DNA from: an uncultured delta proteobacterium
Lineage (GTDB): Bacteria > Desulfobacterota > Binatia > UBA9968
Reading direction: 5' to 3'
DNA length: 64,000 nucleotides
Assembly (NCBI GenBank): GCA_963745835.1
Contig: CAVUZH010000014.1
Span: 352,001-416,000, forward strand
In this document: positions 22,879 through 55,973 of the stretch, one piece after another
How positions within the stretch are numbered: position 1 is the first letter of the stretch
Layout of the letters: each line of letters opens with the position of its first letter
The notes under the pieces: model-generated
Databases searched by the model: none
What the model was told of the DNA's origin: nothing
The model's input: the letters and a program-made list of their open reading frames with translations, nothing else
Program-made: the position numbers and the translations under genes

Positions 22879-25688
<2,810 letters not shown>

Positions 25689-25692
<4 letters not shown>

Positions 25693-28600
25693 TTTGCTCG
25701 ACTCCCGAGCTTGAAAACGCGCGTGCTGCCGCAGACAAACTCGTACACCTCGTCTTTGATTCCCAGCTTGATCGGCGCAACGCCGCGTTCGCGCCCGCGC
25801 ACGGTGAGCGTGTCGCGCGTAAGCCGCAGATCGAGCGAATGCCCGCGATAGCGGATGCGCATGTCGAGGCGCTCCAACTCCTGCGGCAATTGCGGATTGA
25901 GCCGCAGAACGTCCCCGGTTACTTCGATACCGGTCGATACACGCTGCACCAGATCGACGGTTCCCGCCATGGCGCCGAGATGCACGCCCTCCGCGGTGGT
26001 GCCCTGCTGGATATCGCTCACATCGCTCTGCAGCGCCTCGGCGAAGTAGCGTCATCGAGCGCGGCCGGTCCGAGCGCGCCAATACCCACGCATGGACCAC
26101 CCGGGAGAGCGTGGAGCCGTGCGACGAGCGGCAGTCGTAGTAGGCGACGTTGCGCGGGATGGTGTCGCGGTCGAACGGATAGCCCAGACGCGTGAACAGC
26201 TCGCCCAGCTCCTCGGCGGAAAACAGATAGAACAACATCAGCACGTCGGCCTGCTTCGAAAGCTTGTAGCGGTTCGCGCTGTCATTCTCCGCTTCGAGGA
26301 TGAGCTCGAGGCGCTGGATGTTGCCGTAGCGGGCGCGGTAGTCCTCGCCAATCCAGCTCGGCGAGCGTTTCGTAGCCCTCGAACTGGCTGATGATCCCGT
26401 CGCCATGAAACGGCACAAACATCCTGCGGCTGATGTCGTCCCAGCGCGCGATCTCGTCCGCGGACAACCCCAGCCGCGTCGTGAGCTCGGCGCGACGAAT
26501 GTCGGGGAGCAGGTCGAGCACGTCCAGCGCGCGGCACAGCACCCACACGGCCATGATGTTGGTGTAGGCGTTGTTATTGAGGCCGGGCGTCGGTGAACCC
26601 GGATAGCCCTCGTGAAACTCGTCGGGGCCCATCACGCCGCGAATCTCATAGCGCCCGCGCTCGTCATTGAAACTCGCGATGCTCGACCAGAAGCGGGCGA
26701 TCTCGAGAATCAGCTCGGCGCCGTGGAACTGCAGAAACTCGACATCGTGAGTGACTTGAAAGTACTGCCAGACGTTGTAGGCGATGGCGCTGCCGACGTG
26801 GCGCTGCAGGTAGGAGTTGTCGGGCACCCAGCGCTGCGAGCGCGGGTTCAGGTTGAGCTCCTGGGTTTCCTCCTGCCCGTCGCTGCCGCTTTGCCAGGGA
26901 AACATGGCGCCCTGAAATCCCGCGCTTCGGGCCGCGGCGCGCGCCTCGCCGAGGCGCCGGTAGCGATACATGAGCAGCGACCGGGTGATTTCGGGCATGC
27001 GATAATTGAGGAACGGGAAGATAAACAGCTCATCCCAGAAGATGTGGCCCTGGTAGGCCTCCCCGGTCCAGCCGCGCGCCGGCACGCCGATATCGAGCCC
27101 GATGGAGTTGGGCGACACCGCCTGCAGCAGATGAAACATGTTCAACCGCAGCAGCATCGGGACGTTCAGCTTGAATCCGGGCTCTGCCGGCTGGATATGC
27201 ACGTCGAAACGGCGCCACAAGTGCTTCCAGGCAAGCACGTGCTCCGCCATCACCGCGTCGAAGCGACCCGCGCGCGCGATCGCCTTGCGCGCCGCCAGGC
27301 CGCACTCGGAGATGGCCTGATCTCGCGACGTATAGAAAGAGGCGAGCTTCTCCAGCACCAGCGTCTCGCCCTGCTGGAGGTCGATCGACGAGTTCCTGCC
27401 CGATGTAGCCCGGTTCGTCGATGATCCGGCGCGGGCCCTCGCGAAGCTGTCCGTCGACGAACGCTTGCGTTCGCGCCGCCTGCGCGACATGAATATTCGA
27501 CTGGCAGGTGCGCACCAGCAGATACACGCCGTCCTCGCCAACGACCTCGCCTGCCAGCGGCTCCAGGTGTTTGTTGTTGAACTTTCGATAGAGCTTCGCG
27601 CCCGCGTTGACGACGCGCCCATCGATCGCCGAACGGACCGTGACGCGTGGCGGACCAGTTCTCGGCGGTCAGCGCCAGCTCCAGCGCGCCCAGGTGCATG
27701 TCGGCCATCGAGACCAGGCGGCGCTCCTTGAGCGTGGTGCGCCGCCCCTGGCCGTCCTCGAAGCTGAGGGTTCGCAACAGCATGCCGCGCCGGAGATCGA
27801 GCTCCTGGCGGTAGGACAGGATCTTGACTGTTCTCGGCATCGAACCAGTCCGCGTCGGCGATGCGAAACTCGAGCGCAAGCCAGTTGGGAAAATTGACCA
27901 GATCCTCGTTCTCGACCACCCGGCCGGCAATATCGGTGCGCAGCCGATTGTAGCCGCACGGCGAGGTAGGTGCCGGGATAGTGAATGTCATCCGCCCGCG
28001 CCCAGGCTGCCGCCCCGCGCGTCGCGAAATAGCCGTTCCCCAGGGCGCACAGGGCTTCGCGGATTCCCTCGCGCGCCGGGTCGAATCCTTCGTACACCAG
28101 TGACCACGCCGACGGCGGTTCCGCTGCGATCTTAACCTGCGCCAGGTCGGTGACCACGACATCGGCGCCGGCCTCGCGCAGCGCCTGCGATTGCCCGCTG
28201 CGATCGACGCCGATGACGCAGCCGAAAGCGGCCGGCGCGCCCCGCCTCGACGCCGGCGATCGCGTCCTCGACGACGACCGCCCGCGACGGTTCTACCTTG
28301 AGGCGCCGCGCCGCTTCCAGGAAAGCATCGGGCGCCGGCTTGCCGTTGAGAGAGAGGCGGGTGATATCCATCCCGTCCACCCGCGCGTCGAACAGCTGCG
28401 ATATCCCGGCTGCCTCAAGCACCGCCGCGCAGTTGTTGCTGGAGGACACGACCGCAGTCTTGATCTCCTGCGCCCGAAGTGTTCGAACGAGCGCGATCGA
28501 CGCTTCGTAGACCTCGACGCCGTGCTGCTCCAGGTGTTGCGGTGAAATATTGGTCCTTCAGGTTGCCCAGCGCGTGCACGGTTTGCGCGCCGGGGCCGTC

Positions 28601-31336: not shown

Positions 31337-33628
31337 TCATACTGGCCTACTTCCCGGCTCTGAATCGTAAGTGTAAAGCATGCGTGGCAGCTGGGCTTCG
31401 GCTTCGATGCGGCGGGGGTTCGGATAACGCAACGCCTGCCAACAGAGCCAGAGCAGAGGTAAAGCTCCGCCGATGATGAATAGAGCGTCGCCTGGTAAGC
31501 GCGCCCATTCGAGAACATTAACCCAGCGCAGATTGAGAAAGCTCAAACTCCGCGCATACCAGTAGCCGATATCCACGGCATAATAGAGCTGGACAATGCC
31601 GAGCGGGAAAAGATTCACAAACGCCATCCATGCCAGGCCGATATTCAGAGACCAGAAAGATATTTTAGCCGCGCGATCGCTCCATCTGTCGGGATGGGTC
31701 AAGTAGCGCAAACAGAAGAGCAACAATCCGACCGCCAGCATGCCGTAAACGCCCATCATGGCGGTGTGGCCGTGGTTGGCGGTGAGCGCGGTGCCGATTT
31801 CGTAATAGCTTACGACTGGAAGATTGATCAGGAATCCAAACACGCCAGCGCCGAGAAAATTCCACACACCCACCGCTACGAGAAACCATACGGCCCAACG
31901 ATGGAGGTGATAGCGCTCCACGGTTTTCTGTTCTCCCGACTTGATGAAGGACCACGCTTCGAGGCTCAGCAACAATAATGGAATGACTTCCATCGCCGAG
32001 AAAGTCGCGCCTAATGCCAGGTGCGCTACCGGCGTGCCGCTAAAATAGAGGTGGTGCATCGTGCCGATAACACCGCCCAGCGAGTAAAGGATGATATCCA
32101 GATAAATCACGCGCAGGGCAGTCGCCTGGCGAACGACTCCCAGCAATACGAACATGTAGGCGACCATAACAGTGGTAAACAGCTCGAGAAAATCCTCCAC
32201 CCAAAGATGCACCACCCAGAAACGCCAGAAATCATTGACGACGAAACCTTCGCGAGGGCTCGCGAGCAGCCCTACGGCGTAGAACGCAGGAATGGCAAGA
32301 GCGGCATAAAACAAGAGCCAAGGCATATTGCCGAAGTGCTGCTCGCGCAACGTTCCGCGGAGCCCGCGAAACAAGATGAACACCCACAGCAACAGACCAA
32401 CGACGAGCAGGATCTGCCACAGTCTGCCGAGGTCGAGGTATTCCCAGCCTTGATGACCGAGCCAAAACCACAGTCCCTCGCCTAACCAGCCGCGCGCGCC
32501 GAGGTATTCGCCGGCCAGGCTGCCGAAGACTACGATGGCAACGGCAATGAGAAGCACGATTGTAAGCGCCCCCTGGCCGGAGCGCTCACGCCCCGCGATC
32601 AGCGGCACAATGAAAATGCCGGTTGCAAGAAACGACGCGGAGACCCAAAAAATTGCCAGCTGAACGTGCCAGGTCCGCATGATGTTGAAGGGCAGGATGG
32701 TTGAGAAATCGATGCCAAAAAATCCCTCCGGCTCAGCCCGATAGTGTGCAATTAGTCCACCGGTCAAAGTTTGCAAGACAAAGAGTAGCGAAGAGACGAA
32801 CAGAAACCAGACGATGGCTCGCTGTGCCGGTGTAACCGCCACTTGATCGATCGAACGGAATCGCACCGGTTCAGTTTCCGTTTCACTCCAACCGAGCCAA
32901 TCGTAGCGGCCAAAGAAATAAAGGATCACCCCGGTTCCGCCTAACAAGCCGATGATCGAAATCACGCTCCAGGTGATGGCATCGGCGGTGATGAAATTTC
33001 CAGCCAGAGGCTCGGGCGGCCAATTGTTCGTGTACGAGTAGGAGTAACCGGGACGATCGGCAGCGGCGGTCCAGGCAGTCCACGCAAAAAAGGCGGTGAG
33101 TTTGCGGATATCCTCGGGATTGGTAATCCATTCAGCCTGAGCGCCGCCATGGGTTTTCTTTGCGAAGAAAATCGAGTGATAGTGCTCCTCCATCATTCTG
33201 TGCGCCGCTGCTCTTGGTCCGGTCCAGACAAGCGAATCATCCGCCGGGTTGTAAGTATTTTTGTGCAGCTCGGCGGCAACTCGCTCACGTGATGAAAGAC
33301 CGCTCACCGGCGCGCCTGCATACGCGTTGATGAGGAACTCGGAAGTATTGTGAAGGTACTCGGCGGTGAAATCCGGTCCCAGATAAGCGCCATGACCGTA
33401 CACCGAGCCATACTCCATCACCCCATAGCGCTGGAAAACGTTCATTCCGCCGACAATATCTTCGCGGGTAAACAGGACCTTGTTCTCGGCCAGGACTCTG
33501 GCAGGGATGGGCGGTTGGTCACGATAGACCAAATAGGCGAGGAGCCCGAGCACGGTAAAACCGAGGAGATAAGTCAGCACTGCTCCTTGAAACCAAAGAG
33601 ACGAAATCGGCATGGGTTCTCGTGTCAT
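31337..33628 (-). CDS. norB: Quinol-dependent nitric oxide reductase (qNOR)
   Basis: GSVYGHGAYLGPDFTA, YTNNWP, RTWHVQ, VHLWVEDFLE, GTMHH, HGHTAMMGVYG; 763-aa single subunit. Confidence 0.93.
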   Translation of the reverse strand: MTREPMPISSLWFQGAVLTYLLGFTVLGLLAYLVYRDQPPIPARVLAENKVLFTREDIVGGMNVFQRYGVMEYGSVYGHGAYLGPDFTAEYLHNTSEFLINAYAGAPVSGLSSRERVAAELHKNTYNPADDSLVWTGPRAAAHRMMEEHYHSIFFAKKTHGGAQAEWITNPEDIRKLTAFFAWTAWTAAADRPGYSYSYTNNWPPEPLAGNFITADAITWSVISIIGLLGGTGVILYFFGRYDWLGWSETETEPVRFRSIDQVAVTPAQRAIVWFLFVSSLLFVLQTLTGGLIAHYRAEPEGFFGIDFSTILPFNIMRTWHVQLAIFWVSASFLATGIFIVPLIAGRERSGQGALTIVLLIAVAIVVFGSLAGEYLGARGWLGEGLWFWLGHQGWEYLDLGRLWQILLVVGLLLWVFILFRGLRGTLREQHFGNMPWLLFYAALAIPAFYAVGLLASPREGFVVNDFWRFWVVHLWVEDFLELFTTVMVAYMFVLLGVVRQATALRVIYLDIILYSLGGVIGTMHHLYFSGTPVAHLALGATFSAMEVIPLLLLSLEAWSFIKSGEQKTVERYHLHRWAVWFLVAVGVWNFLGAGVFGFLINLPVVSYYEIGTALTANHGHTAMMGVYGMLAVGLLLFCLRYLTHPDRWSDRAAKISFWSLNIGLAWMAFVNLFPLGIVQLYYAVDIGYWYARSLSFLNLRWVNVLEWARLPGDALFIIGGALPLLWLCWQALRYPNPRRIEAEAQLPRMLYTYDSEPGSRPV

Positions 33629-34010: not shown

Positions 34011-34277
34011 CTACTCAACATCCGCGACCTTCTTGATCCCATCGCCCCAATCTTCAACTTTGAAGTCCGAGAACGAAAGCACGATCGGCTCCTTTTCCTC
34101 GATGACGATCATCCGGTTCTTGTACTTAATTAGGAATGAAATCTTGAGCAATAACGAGTCGTCACGAAATTCGAGGAGCGTTACCTTTTGCTCGAAATAG
34201 GAGTATTCCTTGTCGCGCAATATCTCTTCTACTCGCTTACGCGTAAGTGTCTCTTTAGGAGCTAAAAATCCATCCAT
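34011..34277 (-). CDS. Hypothetical protein, 88 aa
   Basis: RBS GGGGAGGGG; clean ORF. Confidence 0.6.
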   Translation of the reverse strand: MDGFLAPKETLTRKRVEEILRDKEYSYFEQKVTLLEFRDDSLLLKISFLIKYKNRMIVIEEKEPIVLSFSDFKVEDWGDGIKKVADVE

Positions 34278-34348
34278 TTCCCCTCCCCATTCCTAGTCGC
34301 CGGCGTTTTGCAATCCTAATCTCGCACATCCATCCGTCAGGACGTTCT

Positions 34349-34768
34349 TCATGCCTGCTCATCTTCTAACCGGTTAAGGAAACACCGCAGGACGTCAACA
34401 TAGGTGACAGTGTCCACGATGCCTTCAGTTCATCGACAGGAATGCCGCCGATCTTTTCTTCGATCAGCAATTCAACCGCTTCGCGGAGATCGTTCTCAGG
34501 CGAAACTGTCGGAGCTTGGCGGTCATTATCTCGTTTACCTTGGTTCTCAGCGCTCTGGCCCTTCCTCTGGCTTAAGAAGCGACGATTGGGCAAGGAAAGA
34601 GCGAATATCGCGCTCACTGACGATACCAATAAGTTGTTTCTTCTCGATGACCGGAAGTTGTCGATAGTGGTTCTCGTCCATTAGCTCTTCCGCTTTACCC
34701 ACTGTATCCGAGGGACTCACGGTCAGAGGATCACGTCGAATAGTTTCATTGAATTAGCTTTTCATCAT
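34349..34768 (-). pseudogene. CBS-pair (AcuB-like) protein, frameshifted
   Basis: PLTVSPSDTVGKAEELMDENHYRQLPVI...GIVSERDIR; TVSPENDLREAVELLIEEKIGGIPV. Confidence 0.8.
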
Positions 34769-34792
34769 GGTTTCCCACTACGATCTATAGAG

Positions 34793-34915
34793 AGCACAGG
34801 TTGTGCCAAGGACGTGGGAAAAATGTTCCCGTGAATGTCATCCGTAATCGGCATCGATCGCCAAACTCTCGCTAGAAATGAGAAAAGTTCTGCGACAAAT
34901 TCTAGTTGCTGCGAA
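34793..34915 (-). promoter_or_regulatory. sigma54 promoter with paired upstream boxes
   Basis: TTGGCACAACCTGTGCT (34793-34809); boxes TTCTCA-TTTC-TAGCGA (34869-34884) and TTCGCA-GCAA-CTAGAA (34900-34915). Confidence 0.65.
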
Positions 34916-35233
34916 TCAAAAGAAGCGTTGAACCCGAAGATTTCACTCATTGGCGTTCACCCTGGTCGAACCTCTCGGCTGTCAAGGCCGCGAAGAGTCT
35001 CCGGTTTGCACTGATGCGCCGGCAGGATGGCGCTCCGGTAGGAATTGCGCAGCCATACTCGCTCCTTCGATTAGCTTGAGTACTGGTGAAAAGGGCCCAT
35101 CTCGACTCCGGTCTGGTTTAGTATTTAGATTCAAGGCATTCGCTCGAAGGAAGGTAACCAATTAGCAAAAAGGCAATAGAGATTCCCGAATGAGCCGTGC
35201 GAAAAGAACTGCCGACGGTCCAAGCCAAACGAA

Positions 35234-35376
35234 TTCTCAAAGCCGCGAAACCAGCGACCGATCTTTCGCGATTCCAATAATAGAGGCGAGATAGAGATAC
35301 CGCCCGCCGGCATTTTGCCCGCTAGAACTCGATAAAAAGCAGTGGGATCGTAAGCGAAAGTGGCATCGAAGATGCG
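35234..35376 (+). promoter_or_regulatory. sigma54 promoter with paired upstream boxes
   Basis: TTCTCA-AAGC-CGCGAA (35234), TTCGCG-ATTC-CAATAA (35265), GTGGCATCGAAGATGCG (35360-35376). Confidence 0.55.
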
Positions 35377-35404
35377 TTATTCCCCCATGTGGGAGATGAG
35401 AAAT

Positions 35405-35731
35405 ATGGCAGACGAAACGGATCGATTTGGCGATACCATGCGACTTGTTGAGAGAGCTAAAGAAGATATTTACTTTGCCGAGCAAGATCGACAGGTGCTG
35501 GAAAAACTCCGCAGTCAACTCCGTAAGGTCGAGACTTCTGACGCGCCCCGGCACTGTCCCAAGTGCCCGGGTAAGCTAGAGGCTTACACGTTTGAGGGCT
35601 ATGCGCTCGATCGCTGTCAGGAATGCGGTGGAGTTTGGTTGGATCGGGGTGAGCTCGAGGCGATCGTCAAGAAGATCAGGCGCGGGCCACTTGGTGGGTG
35701 GTTGGATACCCTGAGCGAGGAAATCAAATAA
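35405..35731 (+). CDS. zf-TFIIB zinc-ribbon domain protein
   Basis: CPKC...LDRCQECGGVWLDRGEL. Confidence 0.85.
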   Translation: MADETDRFGDTMRLVERAKEDIYFAEQDRQVLEKLRSQLRKVETSDAPRHCPKCPGKLEAYTFEGYALDRCQECGGVWLDRGELEAIVKKIRRGPLGGWLDTLSEEIK

Positions 35732-35836
35732 TGACGAAGCTTGGAATGCGATTAGCGGCGAAAGATCACACTTTGCAGAAGGCTTAGGGCCGAAAGAAAC
35801 ATTCGGAACGTTTACGGGGCGACGAAAGATATTTTT

Positions 35837-36469
35837 ATGAAAAAATTTTTAGTTCTGCTCGTTGCTGGTTTCAGCGTCGGGATATTAGGTATGGTCGAAC
35901 CGAACACAGCCTTTGCCCATTGTGACGGGCTCGACGGTCCCGTGGTTGAAGCGGCGCAGAGAGCTTTGGATTCTGGTAATCCTAATCTTGTCTTGATCTG
36001 GGTCCAGAAGCGCGATGAAAAGGAGATCAGAGCAGCTTTCGAAAAAACGCTCGCAGTGCGGAAATACGGTAGCCAGGCGAGGGAACTTGCCGATCTCTAT
36101 TTTTTCGAGACGCTGGTACGCATCCATCGAGCCGGAGAAGGCGAACCTTACACCGGGCTCAAACCTTCCGGGCGCAACCTCGGGCCGGCAATTCCTGCGG
36201 CAGATAAGGCTTTGGAAAGCCGGGAGGTAGAGCCGCTGCTCAAGCTGATCACCGAAGAGACCCGAAGAGCCATCCGCGACAGGTATGAAGATGTGCTGGC
36301 GAAGAAACACTATCGACCAAACGACGTTGAGGCAGGACGAGAATATGTGGAAGCCTATGTTCTCCTCCTCGAACAGGTCGAGCGGATATATGAGGCTGCG
36401 AACAGCCCTGCCCGGGGCCATATAGAGAAAACTGGAAAAACCGAATTGCATAAAGAAGAAAAGCATTGA
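35837..36469 (+). CDS. DUF6448-family exported protein (His/Cys metal-binding start)
   Basis: Signal peptide then AHCDGLDGPVV; FFETLVRIHRAGEGEPYTGLKP. Confidence 0.8.
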   Translation: MKKFLVLLVAGFSVGILGMVEPNTAFAHCDGLDGPVVEAAQRALDSGNPNLVLIWVQKRDEKEIRAAFEKTLAVRKYGSQARELADLYFFETLVRIHRAGEGEPYTGLKPSGRNLGPAIPAADKALESREVEPLLKLITEETRRAIRDRYEDVLAKKHYRPNDVEAGREYVEAYVLLLEQVERIYEAANSPARGHIEKTGKTELHKEEKH

Positions 36470-36486
36470 TTAAAAGAGGGCCTACG

Positions 36487-36939
36487 ATGATATTCAAAAT
36501 TCCCACGCCTTTGAAACTGGAACATGACGAGCTTCACGCCGATCTTGTCAAGGCAACTCAAGCTGGCGGGCGGGTAGGCGATGCCGCTAAGATGGTGGCC
36601 AAAGTCCTTCACGAGCACTTTGTGAAAGAAGAAGAGTTTGCCTTGCCGCCACTCGGATTACTCTCCGCACTGGCTCGGGATCAAGTCGACGAAGTTATGA
36701 AGACCGCAGTACCTATGACTGATCGACTGAAAGCAGAGCTGCCGGAAATGCTGCAGGAGCATGAAGCTGTGGTTGCTGCTCTGAAAACTTTGATCACGGC
36801 GGCTCAGGCTGAGAATAAACCGGAGCATGCGCGCTTCGCCGAGAAGTTGATCTTACATGCCCGGACTGAAGAGGAAGTGCTTTATCCCACTGCAATATTG
36901 ATTGGGGAATACTTAAAACTAAGACTTAGCGCCTCGTAG
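36487..36939 (+). CDS. Hemerythrin (HHE) domain protein
   Basis: EHDELH, HFVKEEE, EHEA, HARTEEEVLYP. Confidence 0.85.
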   Translation: MIFKIPTPLKLEHDELHADLVKATQAGGRVGDAAKMVAKVLHEHFVKEEEFALPPLGLLSALARDQVDEVMKTAVPMTDRLKAELPEMLQEHEAVVAALKTLITAAQAENKPEHARFAEKLILHARTEEEVLYPTAILIGEYLKLRLSAS

Positions 36940-37126
36940 CGCAAAATTTAAATCGCTCTCTAATACGGCCGCGTCATGAAGCAGCTAAATCGTGGGCCGC
37001 TGATTTCTGTACACTGACTTGTTACGGGGGTTTGTCCGGGCGCGAGTAGGCACAGGGTGCGCATTGGTTCTTCGGTTTCCGCGGCGTTGTTCCAGATACC
37101 AATTCATCGCATGCGCTTGAAAACTT

Positions 37127-37229
37127 TTCTCATTGTTTAGAAACAAGATCGGCGCCTCTCCGAAAAACGAGAACAAATCATCGAAAGGTTCGAAGCTTGT
37201 CGGGCGGCAAAACTGGCACTTCTATTGCT
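37127..37229 (+). promoter_or_regulatory. sigma54 promoter with paired upstream boxes
   Basis: TTCTCA-TTGT-TTAGAA (37127), CTCCGA-AAAA-CGAGAA (37158), CTGGCACTTCTATTGCT (37213-37229). Confidence 0.7.
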
Positions 37230-37289
37230 CTCTCTGAATTGGAGAGAATTGATCTTAACCGACAAGCTAGGCAGCTGATGGGGGACAGT

Positions 37290-38006
37290 ATGTTTACCGA
37301 AAAGATAGAGCTAAAAGATCTCGATAAGATGGATGCGGAATATCGGGATCTGCTGGGGCGCGTGTTGACGATACAGGCAGATTGCGAGATCGGCGGACCG
37401 CACCTTTATGTAGAAACGATGCTGCCGGCGGCGCCCAGTAAGCTTGATCAACTGATCGTCGCGCGCACGGCGGCCGAGGAGATCGATCATTTCCGCAAAG
37501 TTGCGCGAGTGGCCGGGGATATGGGAGTCGATGTTTCATTTGTGCTGAGCCAGCCCAACGAAAAACGCTTCGTCGACTCCTTCCGTGGTCTCATCACAAC
37601 CTGGGAAGACCACGCGGTTTTCGGCTTTTTGATCGATCGGGTCGGGCGATACCAGCTTGAAGAATTCTATGATTGCAGTTATCTGCCGCTGCAGCGAATT
37701 CTTCCGGACATTGTCACCGAGGAACTGGGGCATATCGAATACGGTTACAACAAAAGCCTCGAACTGATGTCCAAGGGTGACGAGCAAAAAGAACGCGTCC
37801 AAAAGGCTATCGATTATTGGTATGTTCGCGCGCTCGACATGTTCGGTCGCAGCGGATCCAAACGCGCCGAGCGCTATCTTTATTGGGGATTAAAAAGGCG
37901 GAGCAATGAGCAGGCTCGCGAAGACTACATCCGTGAAGTCAATCCGATCCTGCTTAGCTTGGGTCTCAAAATTCCCGATCCGCTCGAAGGCCGCCGCTAT
38001 ATCTGA
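37290..38006 (+). CDS. PaaA/BoxB-like ferritin-fold diiron protein (short form, 238 aa)
   Basis: QADCE, EEIDH, LIDRVG, EELGH, ALDMFG, WGLKRRSNEQAR. Confidence 0.8.
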   Translation: MFTEKIELKDLDKMDAEYRDLLGRVLTIQADCEIGGPHLYVETMLPAAPSKLDQLIVARTAAEEIDHFRKVARVAGDMGVDVSFVLSQPNEKRFVDSFRGLITTWEDHAVFGFLIDRVGRYQLEEFYDCSYLPLQRILPDIVTEELGHIEYGYNKSLELMSKGDEQKERVQKAIDYWYVRALDMFGRSGSKRAERYLYWGLKRRSNEQAREDYIREVNPILLSLGLKIPDPLEGRRYI

Positions 38007-38020
38007 CAAAGGAGATTGTT

Positions 38021-38212
38021 ATGCCGCAAGCAGCACCTGATACGGAAAAGCTCGACGAGCACCTACTCGAAGTCGTCCGCGCCCTGCACGCGGCCGTCAA
38101 GCAGGGAGTTTCCCATTTAAATGACGCCACAGTGATGGATAAAGCGATTGCCGATAGTAAAGAAATTCTCGACGTCATCATGGCCGGAGAGGTGAAGGAG
38201 TGGCTGAACTGA
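38021..38212 (+). CDS. Small helical hypothetical protein, 63 aa
   Basis: RBS AAAGGAG; operonic spacing of 14 and 33 bp. Confidence 0.7.
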   Translation: MPQAAPDTEKLDEHLLEVVRALHAAVKQGVSHLNDATVMDKAIADSKEILDVIMAGEVKEWLN

Positions 38213-38245
38213 GTTCGGCGGAGGTTCAGCGCTCAGGGACATTTT

Positions 38246-38680
38246 ATGAGCGAAGGAAAAACTCATCTCTACGAGACCGAAGTCGAGTGGATTGGCGCAA
38301 AGGACCTGAAGCTTAGCGGCGCCAAGCAGCCTGCGATCGCCGCAGGAGCGCCGCCGGAGTTTCAGGGCCGGGAGGAAAACTGGTCGCCGGAGCATCTGTT
38401 AGTTGCCTCGCTGAACAGTTGTTACGTGCTGACCTTGATTGCGATTGCGGAATTCTCGAAAGTCGCTCTCGTTAGTTGTTCCTCCACGGCAAAGGGAAAG
38501 CTAGAGAAACTGCCAGGGGGCGGCTATCAGATCACCGAGATTACCGTCAAGCCAAAGGTGGTTCTTGCGTCGGCCGTCGACCTCTCGCGCATGCCGCGAA
38601 TCCTGGAAAAAGCCAAAGACAATTGCTTTATCTCCAACTCGATTAAGGCGACAATCAAGATCGAGCCCGAAATCTTTTGA
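38246..38680 (+). CDS. OsmC/Ohr-family protein
   Basis: APPEFQG...WSPEHLLVASLNSC...CFISNSI. Confidence 0.9.
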   Translation: MSEGKTHLYETEVEWIGAKDLKLSGAKQPAIAAGAPPEFQGREENWSPEHLLVASLNSCYVLTLIAIAEFSKVALVSCSSTAKGKLEKLPGGGYQITEITVKPKVVLASAVDLSRMPRILEKAKDNCFISNSIKATIKIEPEIF

Positions 38681-38862
38681 TCATCAGACGCAGACATCTT
38701 TTTGTCCATCGGGAGAATCTCCAGACTGATGCATCTGCCGGTCAGCTAACTAAAGGGTTTCGTCAATAGCTTCATCACCCACGACTCCTCTGCTTCACGA
38801 GTTGTTTCTTGAGCCAACCGGACGAAGCATAATATATTTGCAAGATCGCAAAAGAAGCCGAA

Positions 38863-39792
38863 ATGGAACGATCCGGTCTTACTCGCTTCGCATGGCTCTC
38901 GATCAGCGCCGCGCTGGCGACCATTGCTTTGAAAGCTTTGGCGTATTTCGTCACGGATTCCGTGGGGCTGTTGTCGGATGCATTGGAGTCATTGGTGAAT
39001 CTGGCTGCGGCTCTCATGGCGCTCGCAATGCTGATCGTTGCGGCTCGACCGCCAGATGAGATTCACGCCTTCGGCTACGGCAAAGCCGAGTATTTTTCCA
39101 GCGGCGCTGAAGGGGCGCTGATTATCCTTGCGGCGGCCATCATCGCCTGGACCGCGCTGCCACGTTTGATTACGCCACAGCCTTTGGAGCAAGTGGGCAT
39201 CGGTCTTGGCGCATCGATCGTAGCAGCGGCGCTCAATTTTTTCGTTGCCCGGCATTTGCTCAGCGGCAGCAAACAGTATCGCTCCATCACACTTGAAGCC
39301 GACGCCCATCACCTGATGACCGATGTCTGGACTTCGGCCGGTGTGGTCGCCGGAGTCGCGATTGTCGCCCTGACCGGCTGGACACGTCTTGATGCGGTGA
39401 TCGCGTTGTGTGTTGCCGTCAATATTTTATTCACGGGAGTGCGACTGCTACGCCGCTCGTTGCTTGGACTTTTAGACAGGGCGTTGGGACCTACCGAGCA
39501 AGAACTAATAAAAGAAATCCTCAGCCGATATGGCAGCCAGGGTCTTCACTATCATGCGCTGCGCACGAGGCAGGCGGGAATGCGGTCGTTCATTTCCTTC
39601 CATGTACTCGTGCCGGGAGAATGGACCGTTCAGCGCGGGCATGATCTGGTCGAACGAGTAGAGCGCGATATACGCGCGGCGGTTCCCGGCGCAACGGTCT
39701 TCACTCACCTCGAGCCGATCAATGATCCGGCAGCTTGGCTGGACTTAACGCTTGATCGGAGAGACGATGCAATACGCAGCAAGTGCAACTAA
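38863..39792 (+). CDS. Cation diffusion facilitator (FieF-like)
   Basis: [28 protein letters not shown]. Confidence 0.92.
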
Positions 39793-40139
39793 AAGGCAAA
39801 TCGGTTATCGGGTTCGGCTGTCGATTTGATAAAAAGCGCTATGAGGCAGTTACAAACCTGACGGATTGGCATTTGATTAGTAGAGGAGAGAAGTATCGCC
39901 GGCGGGTTGTGGTCATTGCGTTATTCCTTATCTACTCGCGCGATGTTCTGAGCGCTGCTTCATCTGGGGTGCGAACTTGGAATGGCCGATAACTTCAAGT
40001 CTCGACGCCACAGCAGTCACAACCTCCCGCCTCGTTTATTCGCAGCGCGGATCCGCCTGAAGGTTTGCTGTAGAACTCGCGAGCTTGCGGTATCACTTTA
40101 TCTGTCTCGATCGAGACATGATTGATTCGAAAAAGCTTG

Positions 40140-41084
40140 TCAGCTAATCTCCAGCTCTTCGATCTTGCGGTAGAGCGACGAGAGACTGATATCCAGAAGC
40201 CTGGCCGCCTCTTTCCGGTCTTGATGGGCTAGGTCCAGAGCGCGCAGAATGTGCTGCTTTTCGAATTGTCGCGACGCATCCCTGAGATTGAATGTGAAGC
40301 CAGGATTGGTTTGACTACTGGCGATGATAGCGCTTGGCAGATTCTTCAACATGATTCGGTCGCCTTCGGCAAGAATCATCGTATGCTCGATGACGTTGTC
40401 GAGCTCGCGAACGTTGCCCTTCCATTGCAGCGCCATTAGAACGCGCACCGCGGCCTCGTCGATACCCTGAAAATTTCTTTTGAGCTCCGGGTTGTGACGC
40501 TTGATGAAATGTTCGATCAACTCCGGAATATCCTCCGGCCGCTCCCGTAAAGGGGGAATATGGATTTCCATGACATTGAGACGATAGTAGAGATCTTCGC
40601 GAAAGCGACCGGCTTCAACTTCGTTATCTAAGTTTCGATTGGTTGCGGCCAAAACCCGAACGTCGATCCGGCGCGGTGTCGTGCTCCCCAGCGGAAGAAT
40701 TTCCTTGGCTTCCAAAGCTCTGAGCAATTTGACTTGGAGGTGCGGCGGGATCTCGCCGATTTCATCGAGAAAAATGGTTCCGCCTCTGGCCTTCTCGAAC
40801 AACCCTTCCTGATTGGCGAAAGCCCCCGTGAAAGAACCTTTTATATGGCCGAAAACGAGACTTTCCAGCAGCGTCTCCGGTAGTGCGCCGCAGTTGACTG
40901 GCAGAAAAACTTTTTCGTGACGATCGCTAAGCGCGTGGAGCGCTAGAGCAATGAGTTCTTTACCGGTGCCGCTTTCGCCCGTGATCAGAACCGTCGCTTG
41001 AGTGTTGGCAACTTTCTTGACCAGCTCTAGGACGTCATGAATCGCCTTGCTTTTGCCAATGATGTTGTTCAATTGAAAGTCCAT
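40140..41084 (-). CDS. sigma54 enhancer-binding protein with no N-terminal regulatory domain
   Basis: Starts directly at IIGKS; GESGTGKE, GSFTGA, FLDEIGE, FREDLYYRL, Fis-type HTH. Confidence 0.9.
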   Translation of the reverse strand: MDFQLNNIIGKSKAIHDVLELVKKVANTQATVLITGESGTGKELIALALHALSDRHEKVFLPVNCGALPETLLESLVFGHIKGSFTGAFANQEGLFEKARGGTIFLDEIGEIPPHLQVKLLRALEAKEILPLGSTTPRRIDVRVLAATNRNLDNEVEAGRFREDLYYRLNVMEIHIPPLRERPEDIPELIEHFIKRHNPELKRNFQGIDEAAVRVLMALQWKGNVRELDNVIEHTMILAEGDRIMLKNLPSAIIASSQTNPGFTFNLRDASRQFEKQHILRALDLAHQDRKEAARLLDISLSSLYRKIEELEIS

Positions 41085-41240
41085 TGACCTATTAAGCCGG
41101 ATGTAGCAGTCATCGGCACGTCACGCGATTTGCGTTGTTTTGCGCGCGAATCCTCTCCTTACGAAATGCCGGCAGCACGCCATCGGCAAGATAAAAGCGT
41201 GCGATGAATGTGTCAAGGAGATGGGAGTTGGAACTCGGAC

Positions 41241-41744
41241 TCAGAGTCTCTCGGCCGCCTGAATAAGCTCCGGATCGGAACAGAAGCGGCGCAGTGCGGT
41301 CTTTAGTTTTTGTCTTTGCACCGCGGCGGGAACGCCCAAATTCTCCATGGTTTTGCCGATGTGCGGGCCTCCCAATTGCAACAATTTGCCGTAGATCACA
41401 TCGATCTCGGAGCTTTCTATTTCGAGCGCAATTTTGAAAGCATCCTCGACGGCGAGCGTCGGTGTACCTTGGTCGAGAAGGGACTGCAGTCGAGCGGCTA
41501 CTCTATCGGCACTGTCACTGCTGATCATCGGATCGAGGGATTCGTCCTCATAGTTAAGGATAAGGTCCCGGCACGCGCCCAGAATACTCGCATGCTGCTC
41601 TTCTTCTCGCGCCATCTCCCACCAAAAGTCCCGCAGGTCCTGTCGCGTTAAAAAGAGATGTGAGAATCGATAGTATATCTTCGCTATCAGCCGTTCGATT
41701 TCGGCAAAGCGCAGCAGGGGATCGAATGGAGCTAAGGTGATCAT
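41241..41744 (-). CDS. Ferritin-like (rubrerythrin-like) protein
   Basis: EIE...YY, WWEMAREEEQH, ALEIESSE. Confidence 0.7.
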   Translation of the reverse strand: MITLAPFDPLLRFAEIERLIAKIYYRFSHLFLTRQDLRDFWWEMAREEEQHASILGACRDLILNYEDESLDPMISSDSADRVAARLQSLLDQGTPTLAVEDAFKIALEIESSEIDVIYGKLLQLGGPHIGKTMENLGVPAAVQRQKLKTALRRFCSDPELIQAAERL

Positions 41745-41842
41745 GATTACAGATTCTCCTTCAACAACGGCAGCAGCTCAGCTTGTCCGAAATCCGACTC
41801 TGCGGCATTCTGAGAGACTGTCGGCGCAGATATTTCACTCCG

Positions 41843-42424
41843 CTAAAGCGCCTTCGCAGTTCCGTTCTTTCGATGCCCGTCAAAAAAGTAACCAGGCCTC
41901 CAAGGGGTTCCCAGCGCAGGCAAGAGCCAGCGGTCAAGTCCGATCCATCCCGCGTTGCGCCAGGCGAGAACCAGCCAGGTTGCTATTGCGAAGAGCATCC
42001 CATTGGTCGAAGCCGATCCAGCCATGATAAAACTCCAGTTCATCAATCCGCCGAAGAACGCGGCCACTCCAACGAAGGCCCCAAAGATCAGTCCTGCAGC
42101 GACCAGAAGTTCGCCGAAAACGATGACTTTGGAAAACCATGTGTGCGCCTCGGCGTTCACCAAAAATTCTATAAAGCTTCGGTACCAGTCGTAGGAGATC
42201 GCCGGCTTGGGGGTCATCTTAAGGCCTCGCTTCCAATACTCGAGCAACGCTTCGCCGCTGCCAATCCATTTGGGGTCGACGAACTTGTGCCATCCCGCTT
42301 CCCACCAAGCCCAACCAAGATATAGCCGTAACGGTAGCCAGAGCCAACTAAACCGCGTGTCCGCAAAGAGCAATCGGGCAATGCGGGGTTCCTCGATGAC
42401 GACTGATTCTCTGTTCGCATTCAT
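41843..42424 (-). CDS. DoxX-family membrane protein (TQO small subunit DoxD-like)
   Basis: LRLYLGWAWWEAGWHK, FGELLV, GSASTN, AGWIGLD; RBS GAGGAG before MNANR. Confidence 0.85.
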   Translation of the reverse strand: MNANRESVVIEEPRIARLLFADTRFSWLWLPLRLYLGWAWWEAGWHKFVDPKWIGSGEALLEYWKRGLKMTPKPAISYDWYRSFIEFLVNAEAHTWFSKVIVFGELLVAAGLIFGAFVGVAAFFGGLMNWSFIMAGSASTNGMLFAIATWLVLAWRNAGWIGLDRWLLPALGTPWRPGYFFDGHRKNGTAKAL

Positions 42425-42456
42425 GGTCTTTCTCCTCTTGTTCCCCATATCCGATC

Positions 42457-42570
42457 CGCACATACCGTACCATAACGCACTCGACCACAAATGCGGAGTA
42501 CCTGGCCGAATAGCTCATTGAATTTTTGCAAACCTGAGAATTAGCCGCTGGCCATTCGCTAGATTGAGAA
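42457..42570 (-). promoter_or_regulatory. sigma54 promoter with paired upstream boxes (DoxX operon)
   Basis: ATGGTACGGTATGTGCG (42457-42473); TTCTCA-GGTT-TGCAAA (42525-42540) and TTCTCA-ATCT-AGCGAA (42555-42570). Confidence 0.6.
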
Positions 42571-42676
42571 AATTGCTGCGTCGGAGGTTAAATGAAAGTG
42601 TTCGAGGATGCTAGCTGAAGACGGTTAGCTGTCGAGATGAGGTGTGCCGGATGATTTTGAAAAAGGCACTCCAGAA

Positions 42677-42797
42677 TTCTCAGCGCTAAGAACATGATGT
42701 CAACTATTTCTCACGGCTAAGAAACGGCCGTACGGAATTGTATTCCGGCTTAGTAATATGAGGCCTTTTTCACCTTAAGGATGGCATTTCTGTTGCG
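42677..42797 (+). promoter_or_regulatory. sigma54 promoter with paired upstream boxes (BoxB-like gene)
   Basis: TTCTCAGCGCTAAGAA (42677), TTCTCACGGCTAAGAA (42708), ATGGCATTTCTGTTGCG (42781-42797). Confidence 0.75.
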
Positions 42798-42839
42798 ATT
42801 CTTCGATCAGGTAGCAAACCCAAGCGATCGGAGAAGAAA

Positions 42840-43967
42840 ATGATGACGCACAACATCTCAACATTCGATGACTGGAAAGATCTATTTTCCAAATGGCAGA
42901 CAGACGTCGGTTTTGATTCCGCCCTGGTTAAGGATTACACGTACGACGCGATTTACGATGCCGGAACCGCGGGGGAAATAGAGTTCGGCGAGTTTAAGGG
43001 CCGGAAGAAGTTTGAAAAGATTCTCGATATTCCGACGCAGGAGATGCGCGATTCTCTGCTCCATCTGATTTATTACCAAGGGGACACCGAATTTGCCTCG
43101 ACAGAACAACAGCGGAAACTTCTCGATACGGCTCCCAGCGACTACGATTTACAGTGCTTACTGCGCGTGATGCGAGAAGAACAGCGCCATGGGTGGCAGA
43201 TGTGCCACGTCCTTATGAGCCAGTTCGGCGATTCAGGCAAGATCGAGGCGAGAAAGCTCCTTGAACGACGCGCATACGACGGAACCCGGCTGTTAGGCGC
43301 TTTCAATCAGGAGATGGATAATTGGATCGACTTTTTCACTTACACGTGTTTCATCGACCGAGACGGCAAATTCCAGCTGACGATGCTGCACCGCTCTAGC
43401 TTTGCACCCTTGTCAAGGAGCATGGGACCAATGCTCAAAGAAGAGGCTTTTCACCTCTTCACCGGCCAGAGCGGTCTTATGAGAATTATCAAGACCGGCA
43501 AAGTACCGATCGATATCTTACAGAAATATCTCAACAAATGGCTATCCACCGGCTACGATCTTTTCGGTAAGGACCACTCCAGTTCTGCTGCGCGATTCTA
43601 TAGATGGGGTTTTAAGGGGAGATTCGATGAGGCGCTTGGCTCTGACCTGCCCGGGGACCTCGATCGTCTAAATGAGGCGGCGAGAAATCTATACTACAAG
43701 GAGAGTTGCGAGATTATCACGAGTCTCAACGCCCTTATCCCAGACGGCAAGCCGAAGTTGCGGGCGCCTAGCCCTAAGTTCAATCGGCAGATCGGTGATT
43801 ATGCTGGACAGACATATAGCGTCGGCGGCTATCTCCTCTCCGGTGCGGATTACCGGGATCATCTCAGGGACGTGCTCCCTGGTCCGGGCGATTTACATCA
43901 GCTCGAGACGATCTTTAAGAGCAAGGACTGGATCACAGCTGGACATGCACAGTCTCAGAAGTCGTGA
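42840..43967 (+). CDS. BoxB-like (benzoyl-CoA epoxidase/PaaA family) diiron protein
   Basis: QGDTEFASTEQQR, TAPSDYDL, EEQRH, LGAFN, FIDRDGKFQL, EEAFH, DLFG. Confidence 0.85.
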   Translation: MMTHNISTFDDWKDLFSKWQTDVGFDSALVKDYTYDAIYDAGTAGEIEFGEFKGRKKFEKILDIPTQEMRDSLLHLIYYQGDTEFASTEQQRKLLDTAPSDYDLQCLLRVMREEQRHGWQMCHVLMSQFGDSGKIEARKLLERRAYDGTRLLGAFNQEMDNWIDFFTYTCFIDRDGKFQLTMLHRSSFAPLSRSMGPMLKEEAFHLFTGQSGLMRIIKTGKVPIDILQKYLNKWLSTGYDLFGKDHSSSAARFYRWGFKGRFDEALGSDLPGDLDRLNEAARNLYYKESCEIITSLNALIPDGKPKLRAPSPKFNRQIGDYAGQTYSVGGYLLSGADYRDHLRDVLPGPGDLHQLETIFKSKDWITAGHAQSQKS

Positions 43968-44017
43968 CTGAAGTGATGGGGGGACGTTGCTGGAACAAAC
44001 TTGAAAGGAGAGATCAG

Positions 44018-44335
44018 ATGGATGCACTATATTTCGATAAACTGCGGGGCCGCCGAATGGAGATTGAGACGACTTTACGACATCTCGATATCCAGCGGCG
44101 TGATGTTGAAGAAAACACCGACTGGATGAATAGAGCTGCTTACGAGAGCCGGATTTACCTGCTCGCCCGCTTATCCTCATGGTATCAGGACGAAACAGGT
44201 CAAATAGAGAGAGCGCTCGAACGGCGAGATGCTAGTTTGTACAGCCTCTGCTTTGGATGCCATGAACCTATCGGAAGAGAGCTCTTGGAAGCTGACCCTA
44301 AAGCGCAGTTTTGCTTCGAGTGCCAAGAGTCATGA
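44018..44335 (+). CDS. TraR/DksA C4 zinc-finger protein
   Basis: IERALER...CFGCHEPI...CFECQE. Confidence 0.75.
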   Translation: MDALYFDKLRGRRMEIETTLRHLDIQRRDVEENTDWMNRAAYESRIYLLARLSSWYQDETGQIERALERRDASLYSLCFGCHEPIGRELLEADPKAQFCFECQES

Positions 44336-44459
44336 TCCGTAGTTTTGGCTTCGAAGTCACAGGCTACAACAGTGAATAGTTAGCGAGACCATGAAGCTGA
44401 CGGCTAAGCAAACTCGTTTCGGCTTGATCCTGCAGCGATGCCTTCTTGAGTGGTCACCC

Positions 44460-44906
44460 GAGTGGCGATTCTTATGGGACTGTTGAAAACGATTCTAGCA
44501 CCAACGGATTTGTCCGACGTCTCAGCCGAGGGCGTTCGTTACGCGTGCCGACTGGCTACGGAGATTGGGCGGAACTCATCGTCCTCAGCGTTATGCTATT
44601 GAACAAAAGCAACGCCGTCGAGAAGTACGACATTGCATACCATCAAAGACGGCTCGAAAATCATCCTCGTGAGAACTCGCCGATGCGGGGCTGTGTTGAA
44701 AGCGCCCCAGATGGTCGATGCCGGCACCCCACGCTGCCATCGTCAGCTGCACCGAGAAGGAAGGGGCCAACCTGATCGTTATGTCTTCGCACTATCGGAG
44801 CGAATTGACCCGGATGTTGATCGGCAGTGTTACGGCTAAAGTCTTGCGTGCTGCACCATGCCCCCATGCTATCGTCCTACGATCGAATGACAAAGTATTT
44901 CGCTAA
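44460..44906 (+). pseudogene. Universal stress protein remnant
   Basis: KTILAPTDLS; ANLIVMSSH...LIGSVTAKVLRAAPCP; internal disruption. Confidence 0.75.
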
Positions 44907-46058: not shown

Positions 46059-46606
46059 TCCGGGTCAGCAAATTTCTTGGAACGCAGAATCTGTTTGGGT
46101 GCGATTCCTATTCATAACAACCGGCTTGCTTGGCCAGGTGGTGCCAGGCATAGAAACAGGCGCGCACCATCGGCGGCACCTCAGCTTTGTCAAAATCCTC
46201 GGGCGTTAAGCCGATTACCTCCCCTTGCTTCACCGTGACCGTGCAGTGATCCATGCCGCCAGCGGGTCGTTAATTAGGTCATCGCTCTCGTGCCCCAGAT
46301 TACCCGCTTGACCGCCAGCGGTGCACTGACTTGCACATAGCCCCAGCAATCGCGTCGGTTGGTTGTGTACAGCGCACTCTGCACGACATAGAAACGTCCC
46401 CGCTCCAACGTCAGCGGCACCGCGAAGAAACTTTTGAACTCGACGCTCTCGAACTGGTCATTGACCCATCTGGTCCAGAGTTTTCAGTAAGTCGCCCACA
46501 AGATCCAGAGCGATCTCCCAAAGTTTACAGCAGCGCAGGCTCCGAAATCACGGACGTGCACGCTTTCAGTAGATTACATGTAAACCAAAATTTCGTCATT
46601 CTCCCT

Positions 46607-50026: not shown

Positions 50027-50124
50027 CCTTTCTTTTCGCAGTATTTAGAAACTCACCCCGCAAAGGCCGCCGCCTAACCAGTGCCGACTTTCTTTTTAGG
50101 CGCGAGGCTCATATGTCCCTGGGC

Positions 50125-50441: not shown

Positions 50442-50458
50442 CGCAACTGTTATGCCAG
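50442..50458 (-). promoter_or_regulatory. sigma54 promoter
   Basis: CTGGCATAACAGTTGCG. Confidence 0.65.
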
Positions 50459-51003: not shown

Positions 51004-51020
51004 CTGGCACATGGATCGCA
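51004..51020 (+). promoter_or_regulatory. sigma54 promoter of dps-sod
   Basis: CTGGCACATGGATCGCA. Confidence 0.6.
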
Positions 51021-55956: not shown

Positions 55957-55973
55957 CGCAATGATAATGCCAA
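55957..55973 (-). promoter_or_regulatory. sigma54 promoter
   Basis: TTGGCATTATCATTGCG. Confidence 0.65.

Follow-up and report, generated by a model that had tools for sequence, protein, structure and literature searches.

Paired palindromic boxes at five sigma-54 promoters suggest an autoregulated regulon of a sensor-less activator with a conserved ferritin-like companion in an uncultured Binatia bacterium

The DNA analysed here is a stretch of 64,000 nucleotides, called the window below, from an uncultured delta proteobacterium of the Binatia lineage UBA9968 (GenBank assembly GCA_963745835.1, contig CAVUZH010000014.1, positions 352,001 to 416,000, forward strand). Its region from 34.0 to 44.3 kb consists of five transcription units, one of which encodes a sigma-54 activator (bacterial enhancer-binding protein, bEBP) that lacks a sensor domain. 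Each unit is headed by a -24/-12 promoter with zero to two mismatches to TGGCAC-N5-TTGC and correct GG/GC spacing, and each promoter is accompanied by a pair of 16-bp palindromic boxes. A preliminary description, made from the letters and a list of open reading frames (ORFs), had reported these elements and proposed an autoregulated iron/redox stress regulon driven by the activator. For the present analysis, gene families were assigned with Pfam and NCBIfam, and operon limits were inferred from intergenic gaps and simple scans.

Unit 1 (34011-34747, minus strand) comprises a CBS-pair gene (Pfam CBS), which reads in three frame pieces assigned by tblastn (34747-34577, 34584-34435 and 34426-34358), and the gene for a conserved 88-residue protein of no known family (34011-34277). 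Unit 2 (35360-36939, plus strand) encodes, according to Pfam, a TFIIB-type zinc-ribbon protein (ORF 35360-35731, likely start at 35405), a DUF6448 protein with a signal-peptide-like N-terminus (35837-36469) and a hemerythrin-domain protein (36466-36939). Unit 3 (37197-39992, plus strand) starts with a PaaA-like di-iron protein (ORF 37197-38006, likely start at 37278 or 37290), followed by a 63-residue ORF (38021-38212), an OsmC-family peroxiredoxin (38246-38680), a CDF efflux transporter most like MntE (38863-39792) and a 69-residue ORF (39783-39992), the three named families being assigned with Pfam/NCBIfam. Because the OsmC and CDF genes are separated by 183 bp with a sigma-70-like site at 38809-38838, membership of the transporter in the regulon is uncertain, as is that of the 69-residue ORF.

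Unit 4 (40140-42423, minus strand) contains three genes, for a DoxX-like membrane protein (41843-42423), a 167-residue ferritin/rubrerythrin-like helical-bundle protein here called Ferr167 (41241-41744), and the 314-residue activator (40140-41084; Pfam Sigma54_activat, AAA_lid_14 and HTH_8). The DoxX-like assignment is under the Pfam cut-off (2.9e-4); its ORF runs to 42490, and the likely start, read from the sequence, is an ATG at 42423 with a ribosome-binding site. Unit 5 (42840-44335, plus strand) encodes a 375-residue BoxB-like di-iron protein of the PaaA/BoxB superfamily (42840-43967; Pfam PaaA_PaaC) and a 123-residue DksA/TraR-type zinc-finger protein (43964-44335; Pfam zf-dskA_traR and DksA-like_N). 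The BoxB-like protein matched NCBIfam benzo_boxB with an E-value of 1.4e-65 and 222 bits, below the cut-off of 499. The genes that the preliminary description had placed under the five promoters indeed form five units behind them, with the reservation made for the transporter, and the families it named agree with Pfam and NCBIfam, except that its CBS gene is in three pieces and that its ferritin-like protein owes this label to a predicted fold.

All five sigma-54 promoters that had been reported are present, their starts having been given 1 bp too low. They lie at 34794-34808 (unit 1, minus strand, TGGCACAACCTGTGC), 35361-35375 (unit 2, plus strand, TGGCATCGAAGATGC, two mismatches), 37214-37228 (unit 3, plus strand, TGGCACTTCTATTGC, a perfect match), 42458-42472 (the DoxX-Ferr167-activator operon, minus strand, TGGTACGGTATGTGC, two mismatches with GG/GC kept) and 42782-42796 (the BoxB-like/DksA-like operon, plus strand, TGGCATTTCTGTTGC). 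The ten boxes were found exactly where they had been described. Pair A consists of 34869-34884 (TCGCTAGAAATGAGAA, weak) and 34900-34915 (TTCTAGTTGCTGCGAA), pair B of 35234-35249 (TTCTCAAAGCCGCGAA) and 35265-35280 (TTCGCGATTCCAATAA, weak), pair C of 37127-37142 (TTCTCATTGTTTAGAA) and 37158-37173 (CTCCGAAAAACGAGAA, weak), pair D of 42525-42540 (TTTGCAAACCTGAGAA) and 42555-42570 (TTCGCTAGATTGAGAA), and the best pair, E, of 42677-42692 (TTCTCAGCGCTAAGAA) and 42708-42723 (TTCTCACGGCTAAGAA). The boxes follow the consensus TTCTCA-N4-TGAGAA, or more loosely TTCnCr-N4-yGnGAA. Within the pairs they are 31, 31, 31, 30 and 31 bp apart, and when the orthologous loci described below are included the centre-to-centre spacing is 30-32 bp. 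This is about three helical turns, so both boxes of a pair would be on the same face of the DNA. The nearer box is centred 70, 90, 50, 62 and 68 bp from the GG of the -24 element at the promoters 34794, 35361, 37214, 42458 and 42782, respectively.

The motif stands out statistically. The window contains nine sites with at most two mismatches to the consensus, against 2.89 ± 1.51 expected, and none of 100 shuffles reached nine; six of these nine sites are boxes named in the preliminary description. Blind enumeration and leave-one-region-out scoring were chosen to avoid circularity. When all 36,864 palindromes of the form 6-N(0-8)-6 were enumerated in the 19.6 kb without ORFs of at least 100 amino acids, TTCTCA-N4 ranked first, with eight sites against 0.67 expected (Poisson p 5.7e-7, about 0.02 after Bonferroni correction), and the palindrome in second place was the same motif moved by one base. 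An enumeration of the whole window, with coding DNA included and a mononucleotide null, was dominated by GC-rich codon patterns and left TTCTCA outside the top 15. In the leave-out analysis, a palindromic matrix was built from four regions and used to score the fifth pair over 63,954 positions. The left-out pair ranked fourth or fifth in all five cases (pair E fourth, pair D fifth), and only training pairs scored above it.

Five pairs in the window scored 20 or more, against a mean of 0.010 in 200 first-order Markov simulations. No further pair in the window reached this score, i.e., the other sigma-54-like promoters have no box pairs, in agreement with what the preliminary description had noted. 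The distal boxes are 78 % identical and the spacers between boxes 21 %, so the pairs are not copies of a duplicated segment; the likeness is limited to the boxes and the -24/-12 elements. Sigma-54 sites with at most one mismatch are also in excess in the window (13 against 4.47 ± 2.12 expected, with none of 100 shuffles reaching 13). No box pair in the window is farther than about 6 kb from the activator gene. Ten other sigma-54 sites with at most one mismatch are scattered over the remaining DNA, and the ferritin, hemerythrin and universal-stress-protein (USP) genes at 47-61 kb have no box pairs.

Several further box candidates were considered. A third box one step upstream, at 42646 and at 37096, was rejected since the single scores are about -2 and -3, the high pair scores at these positions arising because a strong box adjoins. 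The pair 46074/46105 was not counted, being borderline (9.5 + 9.3) and without a sigma-54-like promoter nearby. It spans 46074-46120 (TTCTTGGAACGCAGAA / TTCCTATTCATAACAA) and lies directly past the stop codon of a 364-residue membrane protein. There is also a strong single box at 50035-50050 (TTCGCAGTATTTAGAA), whose matrix score of 17.1 ranks fourth in the window; a minus-strand ORF that may encode a small membrane protein follows about 15 bp downstream of it. A weaker single box is at 50628-50643, about 180 bp upstream of a sigma-54 promoter at 50443-50457 on the minus strand. Neither of these two boxes has a partner at 30-32 bp.

The latter promoter is one of seven more good sigma-54 promoters in the window, the others being at 2801-2815, 5579-5593 and 55958-55972 on the minus strand and at 12972-12986, 51005-51019 and 56337-56351 on the plus strand. 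Two of the seven share the identical sequence TGGCATCTTCATTGC, and some are near USP, hemerythrin and Dps/ferritin-like genes. A search for palindromes of the form 5-Nx-5 with at most one mismatch and present at four or more of the seven gave no shared motif. The window also encodes a second bEBP, of the NtrC type with a receiver domain (62532-63920, minus strand). These seven promoters may form a second, hypoxia-type regulon like that of NmpR in Myxococcus xanthus.

To place the activator among its relatives, 185,579 species genomes were scanned with it and the best 80 of 601 stretches were compared; further close orthologs may exist. Four loci, L001-L004, carry an activator that is 78-81 % identical, and the next best locus has 53 %. 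The four come from uncultured soil-type metagenome-assembled genomes (MAGs) labelled Binatia, Eisenbacteria and Syntrophobacteraceae. With a box-pair matrix trained on the window alone, the 69,731 bp of these loci contained eight pairs scoring at least 20, against a mean of 0.027 pairs in Markov simulations, of which 8 of 300 reached even one. A single such pair was found in the 1,248,380 bp around the 76 distant activators (at most 55 % identity). The motif of the preliminary description thus recurs at orthologous loci (8 pairs in 69.7 kb) and is nearly confined to them (1 pair in 1.25 Mb elsewhere), a contrast to be read with the fact that the control loci come from other phyla, so that a lineage-specific regulator would produce it as well.

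The link between box pairs and promoters also holds in these genomes. A check of 17 pairs, five from the window and 12 from the orthologous loci (four of the 12 score below 20), showed that the nearer box is always centred 42-98 bp away from a sigma-54-like promoter, most commonly 70 bp. The promoter has at most two mismatches for 15 of the 17, and the one at position 8231 of L002 has three. At position 14712 of L004 the only promoter site, with two mismatches, points away from the annotated gene. A box pair precedes the Ferr167-activator operon in all four orthologous loci as in the window, which fits autoregulation and supports that part of the original proposal. In L001 and L004 one pair lies between two divergent sigma-54 promoters. 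In L001 a BoxB-like ortholog (80 % identical) is divergent from the Ferr167-activator genes with one box pair common to both; in L002 a DksA-like ortholog follows a box pair and a perfect sigma-54 promoter; and in both L002 and L003 the CBS gene and the 88-residue gene are behind a box pair and a sigma-54 promoter. The CBS/88-residue unit is thus present in two of the four orthologous loci and the DksA-like gene in one, and the position of the DoxX-like gene is kept in none of them. Other ortholog box pairs precede genes that are not homologous to those of the window. The synteny expected across MAGs was therefore found for Ferr167 and the activator, which stay together in all five loci, and not for the accessory genes, which differ between genomes.

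Two observations concern the orthologous loci themselves. The L004 pairs at 14712-14758 and 15679-15724 are nearly identical (TTCTTAsTTCTGCAAA ... TTATTGGA...), which points to one upstream region having been duplicated recently in L004. Immediately behind the activator gene, L002 (10504-12226) and L004 (10947-12628) have a box pair and a sigma-54 promoter followed by the gene for a 542-residue protein with APH phosphotransferase and AAA_33 kinase domains. These two proteins are 55 % identical to each other and have no counterpart in the window.

The activator has the parts expected for a bEBP. Its AAA+ domain begins at residue 8 and covers positions 1-168 of the 168 of the PF00158 model (7.1e-69), and it ends in a Fis-type helix-turn-helix (HTH; HTH_8, 1.9e-9). 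Walker A (GESGTGKE), Walker B (DEIGE) and the conserved arginines are invariant across the activators compared, and the GAFTGA loop is present as the variant GSFTGA, which also occurs in two distant relatives (L042 and L077). With an AAA+ domain, a GAFTGA-type loop and an HTH with palindromic sites before promoters, the protein is a bEBP by sequence, with these sites as its predicted binding sites. Pfam detected neither a receiver domain nor a GAF domain. Since 40140-41084 is already the longest ORF, there is no room for an N-terminal domain, and the orthologs in L001-L004 likewise have only 0-19 extra N-terminal residues, so the sensor-less form that the preliminary description had seen is real. 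In 75 other loci the activator is longer at its N-terminus by 105-524 residues, in most cases by about 135, the size of a receiver domain. L032 also seems to lack an N-terminal domain, its gene abutting the edge of the locus; this case aside, the sensor-less form is limited to the clade of L001-L004 among the 80 loci. Each of the five loci has a single sensor-less activator, and its HTH is nearly identical in the five orthologs (RKEAARLLDISLSSLYRKIEEL) and different in distant relatives. The activator stayed below the cut-offs of all NCBIfam equivalogs, among them PspF (262.4 bits against 443.55 for TIGR02974, 227 against 529 for NF008622), NorR (310 bits against 476 for NF003451), NtrC and RtcR. 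In the protein database, the top 120 relatives are at least 83 % identical, are all 310-336 residues long and carry generic names only.

Ferr167 is encoded directly upstream of the activator and is the only gene besides it that is common to all five loci, with constant order and orientation and a gap of 80-156 bp. This one conserved partner had gone unnoticed in the preliminary description. A hidden Markov model of the Ferr167 family matched ORFs in all four orthologous loci and in none of the other 76. The protein has no Pfam or NCBIfam match, and a sequence search against the PDB gave only chance-level matches to NrdR (E 0.4 and above). Its AlphaFold (AF2) model is all-helical with a predicted local distance difference test score (pLDDT) of 90.7. 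The top PDB folds in Foldseek were symerythrin, MJ0754, ferritins and rubrerythrin, and the nearest Atlas clusters are rubrerythrin-like. Database relatives number over 1,000; among the 120 listed, one is 55 % identical and all others 74-95 %, and there is a sparser halo of relatives of about 170 residues at 25-40 % identity. The lists of matches for Ferr167 and for the activator have seven identical longest-contig sizes, a weak hint that the two share contigs elsewhere as well.

The ligand pattern of Ferr167 departs from that of a complete di-iron site (E, ExxH, E, ExxH). The glutamates E17, E48 and E110 never vary, and 35 of 36 sequences have H51, so that E17, E48-x-x-H51 and E110 are kept; the histidine of the fourth helix is replaced. 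Position 143 is glutamine in nine of ten sequences of the activator-linked clade and histidine in 25 of 26 distant relatives. This sequence pattern suggests a remodelled metal site, and because of it we favour a role of Ferr167 in sensing over a catalytic one. The gap between Ferr167 and the activator contains a sigma-70-like site on the minus strand (41188-41216, TTGACA-17-TATCTT, 10 of 12 positions), which could give basal expression of the activator. It is not kept in the four related loci, and the alignment of the five gaps contains no conserved element.

A few features of the surrounding DNA lie outside the five units. Directly beside them is the gene for a quinol-type nitric-oxide reductase of 763 residues (NorB with an N-terminal cytochrome-c-like domain; 31337-33628, minus strand). 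Upstream of norB there is a poor sigma-54-like site but no box pair, and the absence of a pair places the nitric-oxide (NO) reductase outside the regulon. Genes that appear frameshifted or fragmented occur at 34358-34747 (minus strand, the CBS gene), 44446-44906 (plus strand), 22879-28162 (minus strand) and 3659-5463 (minus strand). By eye, a USP-like reading is apparently split between ORFs at 44446-44906; a GH65 domain extends over two overlapping ORFs with an in-frame fusion to a P-type ATPase, and fragments of ABC substrate-binding proteins are also present in the window. These broken genes are either pseudogenes or the result of indel errors in the assembly. An Rfam scan of the whole window found no RNA family.

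We consider it probable, at roughly 0.7, that the box pairs are the enhancer (upstream activating sequence) of the activator encoded at 40140-41084 and that the five promoters constitute its autoregulated sigma-54 regulon, as judged from sequence comparisons. In this mechanism, activator dimers would bind each palindrome through the C-terminal Fis-type HTH, and two bound dimers would nucleate the AAA+ hexamer, by analogy with NtrC. The hexamer would contact the sigma-54 holoenzyme 42-98 bp downstream and open the promoter with ATP. With the DoxX-Ferr167-activator operon under its own box pair, the circuit would feed back on itself. Because the activator lacks a sensor domain, its activity must be set from outside the protein. 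Ferr167 is our preferred candidate for such a trans-acting sensor, a tentative choice with the odds somewhat against it. It could bind the AAA+ domain and release or stimulate the activator when its metal centre meets oxygen, peroxide, NO or a change in iron supply, in a manner akin to the PspA-PspF and HrpV-HrpS pairs. In its widest form the proposal would make Ferr167 the first of a new class of trans-sensors, in which a helical bundle with a remodelled metal site docks on the AAA+ ring and gates a self-amplifying regulon widespread in Binatota and their relatives, comparable in function to the regulons for hypoxia and dormancy in Myxococcus and Mycobacterium; we regard this extension as rather unlikely.

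Several observations weigh against this interpretation or parts of it. Three of the ten boxes are individually at background, with single leave-out ranks of 203 (34869), 217 (37158) and 81 (35265), and they count only because of their spacing from a strong partner; that some boxes are degenerate had been conceded from the start. The accessory genes vary between genomes, and no single function emerges from them. As the assembly contains frameshifted genes, little weight should be given to spacing differences of 1 bp, and some start sites are uncertain. The gap of 80-156 bp and its sigma-70-like site mean that the activator may have a promoter of its own, in which case autoregulation may be partial. 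The fold matches that make Ferr167 a candidate ferritin-like protein are weak (template modelling score 0.5-0.56, E of 0.04 or higher), and its proposed role as sensor is drawn from gene order and one residue pattern.

A rival explanation is that the boxes are the enhancer of the activator and that Ferr167 is simply one of the products of its regulon. In that case the activator would be constitutively active and controlled in amount, by positive feedback and a basal promoter, or else be controlled by another regulon protein (CBS-pair, DksA-like or zinc-ribbon) or by a small molecule acting on the AAA+ domain. Control of this kind has precedents, since HrpR/S is partly controlled by expression level and FleQ by c-di-GMP. 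Other regulon proteins of the ferritin superfamily are clearly cargo (the BoxB-like and PaaA-like proteins and those of 169/183 residues in L002/L004), the sigma-70-like site in the gap could serve as the basal promoter, and the CBS/88-residue unit and the DksA-like gene do recur, in two and one of the four orthologous loci. On the other hand, Ferr167 alone accompanies the activator in all five loci with fixed order and orientation, it is strongly conserved among the 120 listed homologues, and the clade-specific ligand change is easier to reconcile with a sensor than with an enzyme; the sigma-70-like site is not kept in the related loci, and the region contains about as many such sites as chance predicts (11 against 9.4 expected). 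We give this explanation of Ferr167 a substantial chance, a little short of even.

The boxes might instead be bound by another protein whose gene lies elsewhere, e.g., a repressor of the Fur family or another iron/redox repressor, with the activator using a different site or none. The Caulobacter Fur box, given as TGAGAA-N3-TTCTCA (PMC2724300), is built from the same two hexamers as the present half-sites, the genes served are rich in iron proteins, and the enrichment relative to loci of other phyla would be compatible with a lineage-specific global regulator. However, the halves of the present boxes are reversed and separated by N4, which is a different dimer geometry from the Fur box (of the 7-1-7 type and promoter-overlapping), and they lie 42-98 bp upstream of the -24 element, off the promoters, unlike what is expected of a repressor site. 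Tandem palindromes about three turns apart, as at glnAp2 with NtrC, are the classic layout of an activator. No other DNA-binding regulator is common to the five loci. The confinement of the pairs to about 6 kb around the activator in a window of 64 kb, and not to the iron-protein and USP genes at 47-61 kb, is the sole argument that the binder is a local protein. Taken together, we find a foreign binder improbable. Chance or the duplication of promoter segments could be invoked because some boxes are degenerate, the two L004 upstream regions are clearly duplicates and the enumeration with coding DNA does not pick the motif, yet it would have to account for nine sites against 2.89, left-out ranks of 4-5, first place among 36,864 palindromes and five pairs against 0.010, for boxes that agree far better than the spacers between them, and for recurrence in four other genomes before non-homologous genes. 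This we regard as hardly credible.

The signal to which an enhancer-bound activator would respond can be approached through gene content. In the window, the regulon products include di-iron proteins, hemerythrin, OsmC and the MntE-like CDF transporter, which points to iron, oxygen or peroxide chemistry. In the related loci, box pairs neighbour genes for phosphofructokinase (with GAPDH just beyond in L003), a lactate-dehydrogenase-like protein, 2-hydroxyacyl-CoA dehydratase subunits, the APH/AAA kinase and further CBS-pair proteins, and a second ferritin-like gene (169/183 residues) stands ahead of Ferr167 in L002/L004. This content fits a low-oxygen or energy-stress response equally well as iron/redox stress. 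Because the mixture of genes resembles the hypoxia-induced regulon of NmpR, low oxygen or redox imbalance is at least as likely a signal as iron stress. The iron/redox stress label of the preliminary description is thus a guess from gene content; its other half, autoregulation, fits the box pair before the activator operon in five of five loci.

If correct, the analysis supplies a testable enhancer motif and regulon for a family of activators with many metagenomic members (at least 120 protein clusters with 83 % identity or more), in a lineage without a cultured representative. Only a few sigma-54 activators without a sensor domain are known, and every one of them has revealed its own form of control in trans. 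A partner that is a metal protein would, if the sensor role is true, be a new mode of control and a possible modular switch for oxygen, NO or iron in synthetic circuits. If Ferr167 is mere cargo, an ordinary, well-supported prediction of a new regulon remains.

The arrangement can be compared with several known systems. At glnAp2, two strong palindromes about three helical turns apart nucleate the active oligomer of NtrC before a sigma-54 promoter, and the present box pairs share this distance and position. NtrC is controlled by phosphorylation through its receiver domain and has the motif TGCACC-N5-GGTGCA. PspF of E. coli consists of an AAA+ domain and an HTH and is controlled in trans by a partner that binds the AAA+ domain, as described in PMC3128695. 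The present activator is similar in lacking an N-terminal sensor and in having a tandem upstream site before a sigma-54 promoter; it scores under the cut-off of the pspF models and is not an ortholog. No match to the PspA/IM30 family was found among the 63 window ORFs scanned or the 55 ORFs of L001-L004, and in contrast to PspF the conserved neighbour is a ferritin-like bundle, there are five promoters before genes for iron and redox-type proteins, and the activator gene is inside a regulated operon. HrpR and HrpS of Pseudomonas syringae are likewise sensor-less sigma-54 activators that are regulated in trans (PMC3105312; PMC4145663). They are a co-dependent paralogous pair acting on one promoter (hrpL), whereas here one activator gene serves many promoters, and no HrpV-like gene was identified at the present locus.

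NorR is a sigma-54 activator that senses through a non-heme metal centre in its own N-terminal GAF domain. For PexR, too, a non-heme metal centre in the N-terminal GAF domain is described, with a response of the NO or H2O2 class (PMC12754779). The activator described here has no such GAF domain; if Ferr167 senses through a metal, the sensor would be a separate polypeptide. With respect to gene content the closest parallel is the regulon of NmpR in Myxococcus xanthus, a hypoxia-induced sigma-54 regulon with tandem palindromes that includes CBS proteins, USPs and hemerythrin (PMC11841059). The gene content of the window overlaps with it. According to the same account, NmpR belongs to the NtrC-type response regulators and receives its signal from a heme-sensing phosphorelay, and its site is GCGCA-N5-TGCGC with 14-15 bp between sites (PMC11841059); the present activator differs by the absence of a receiver domain, another motif and a centre-to-centre distance of 30-32 bp. 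We found no description in the literature of the activator clade, its motif or its ferritin-like partner, and no published sigma-54 biology for Binatia/Binatota. What is known from the systems above is the sensor-less activator with a tandem upstream site; what is new here is the clade, the motif and the conserved ferritin-like companion.

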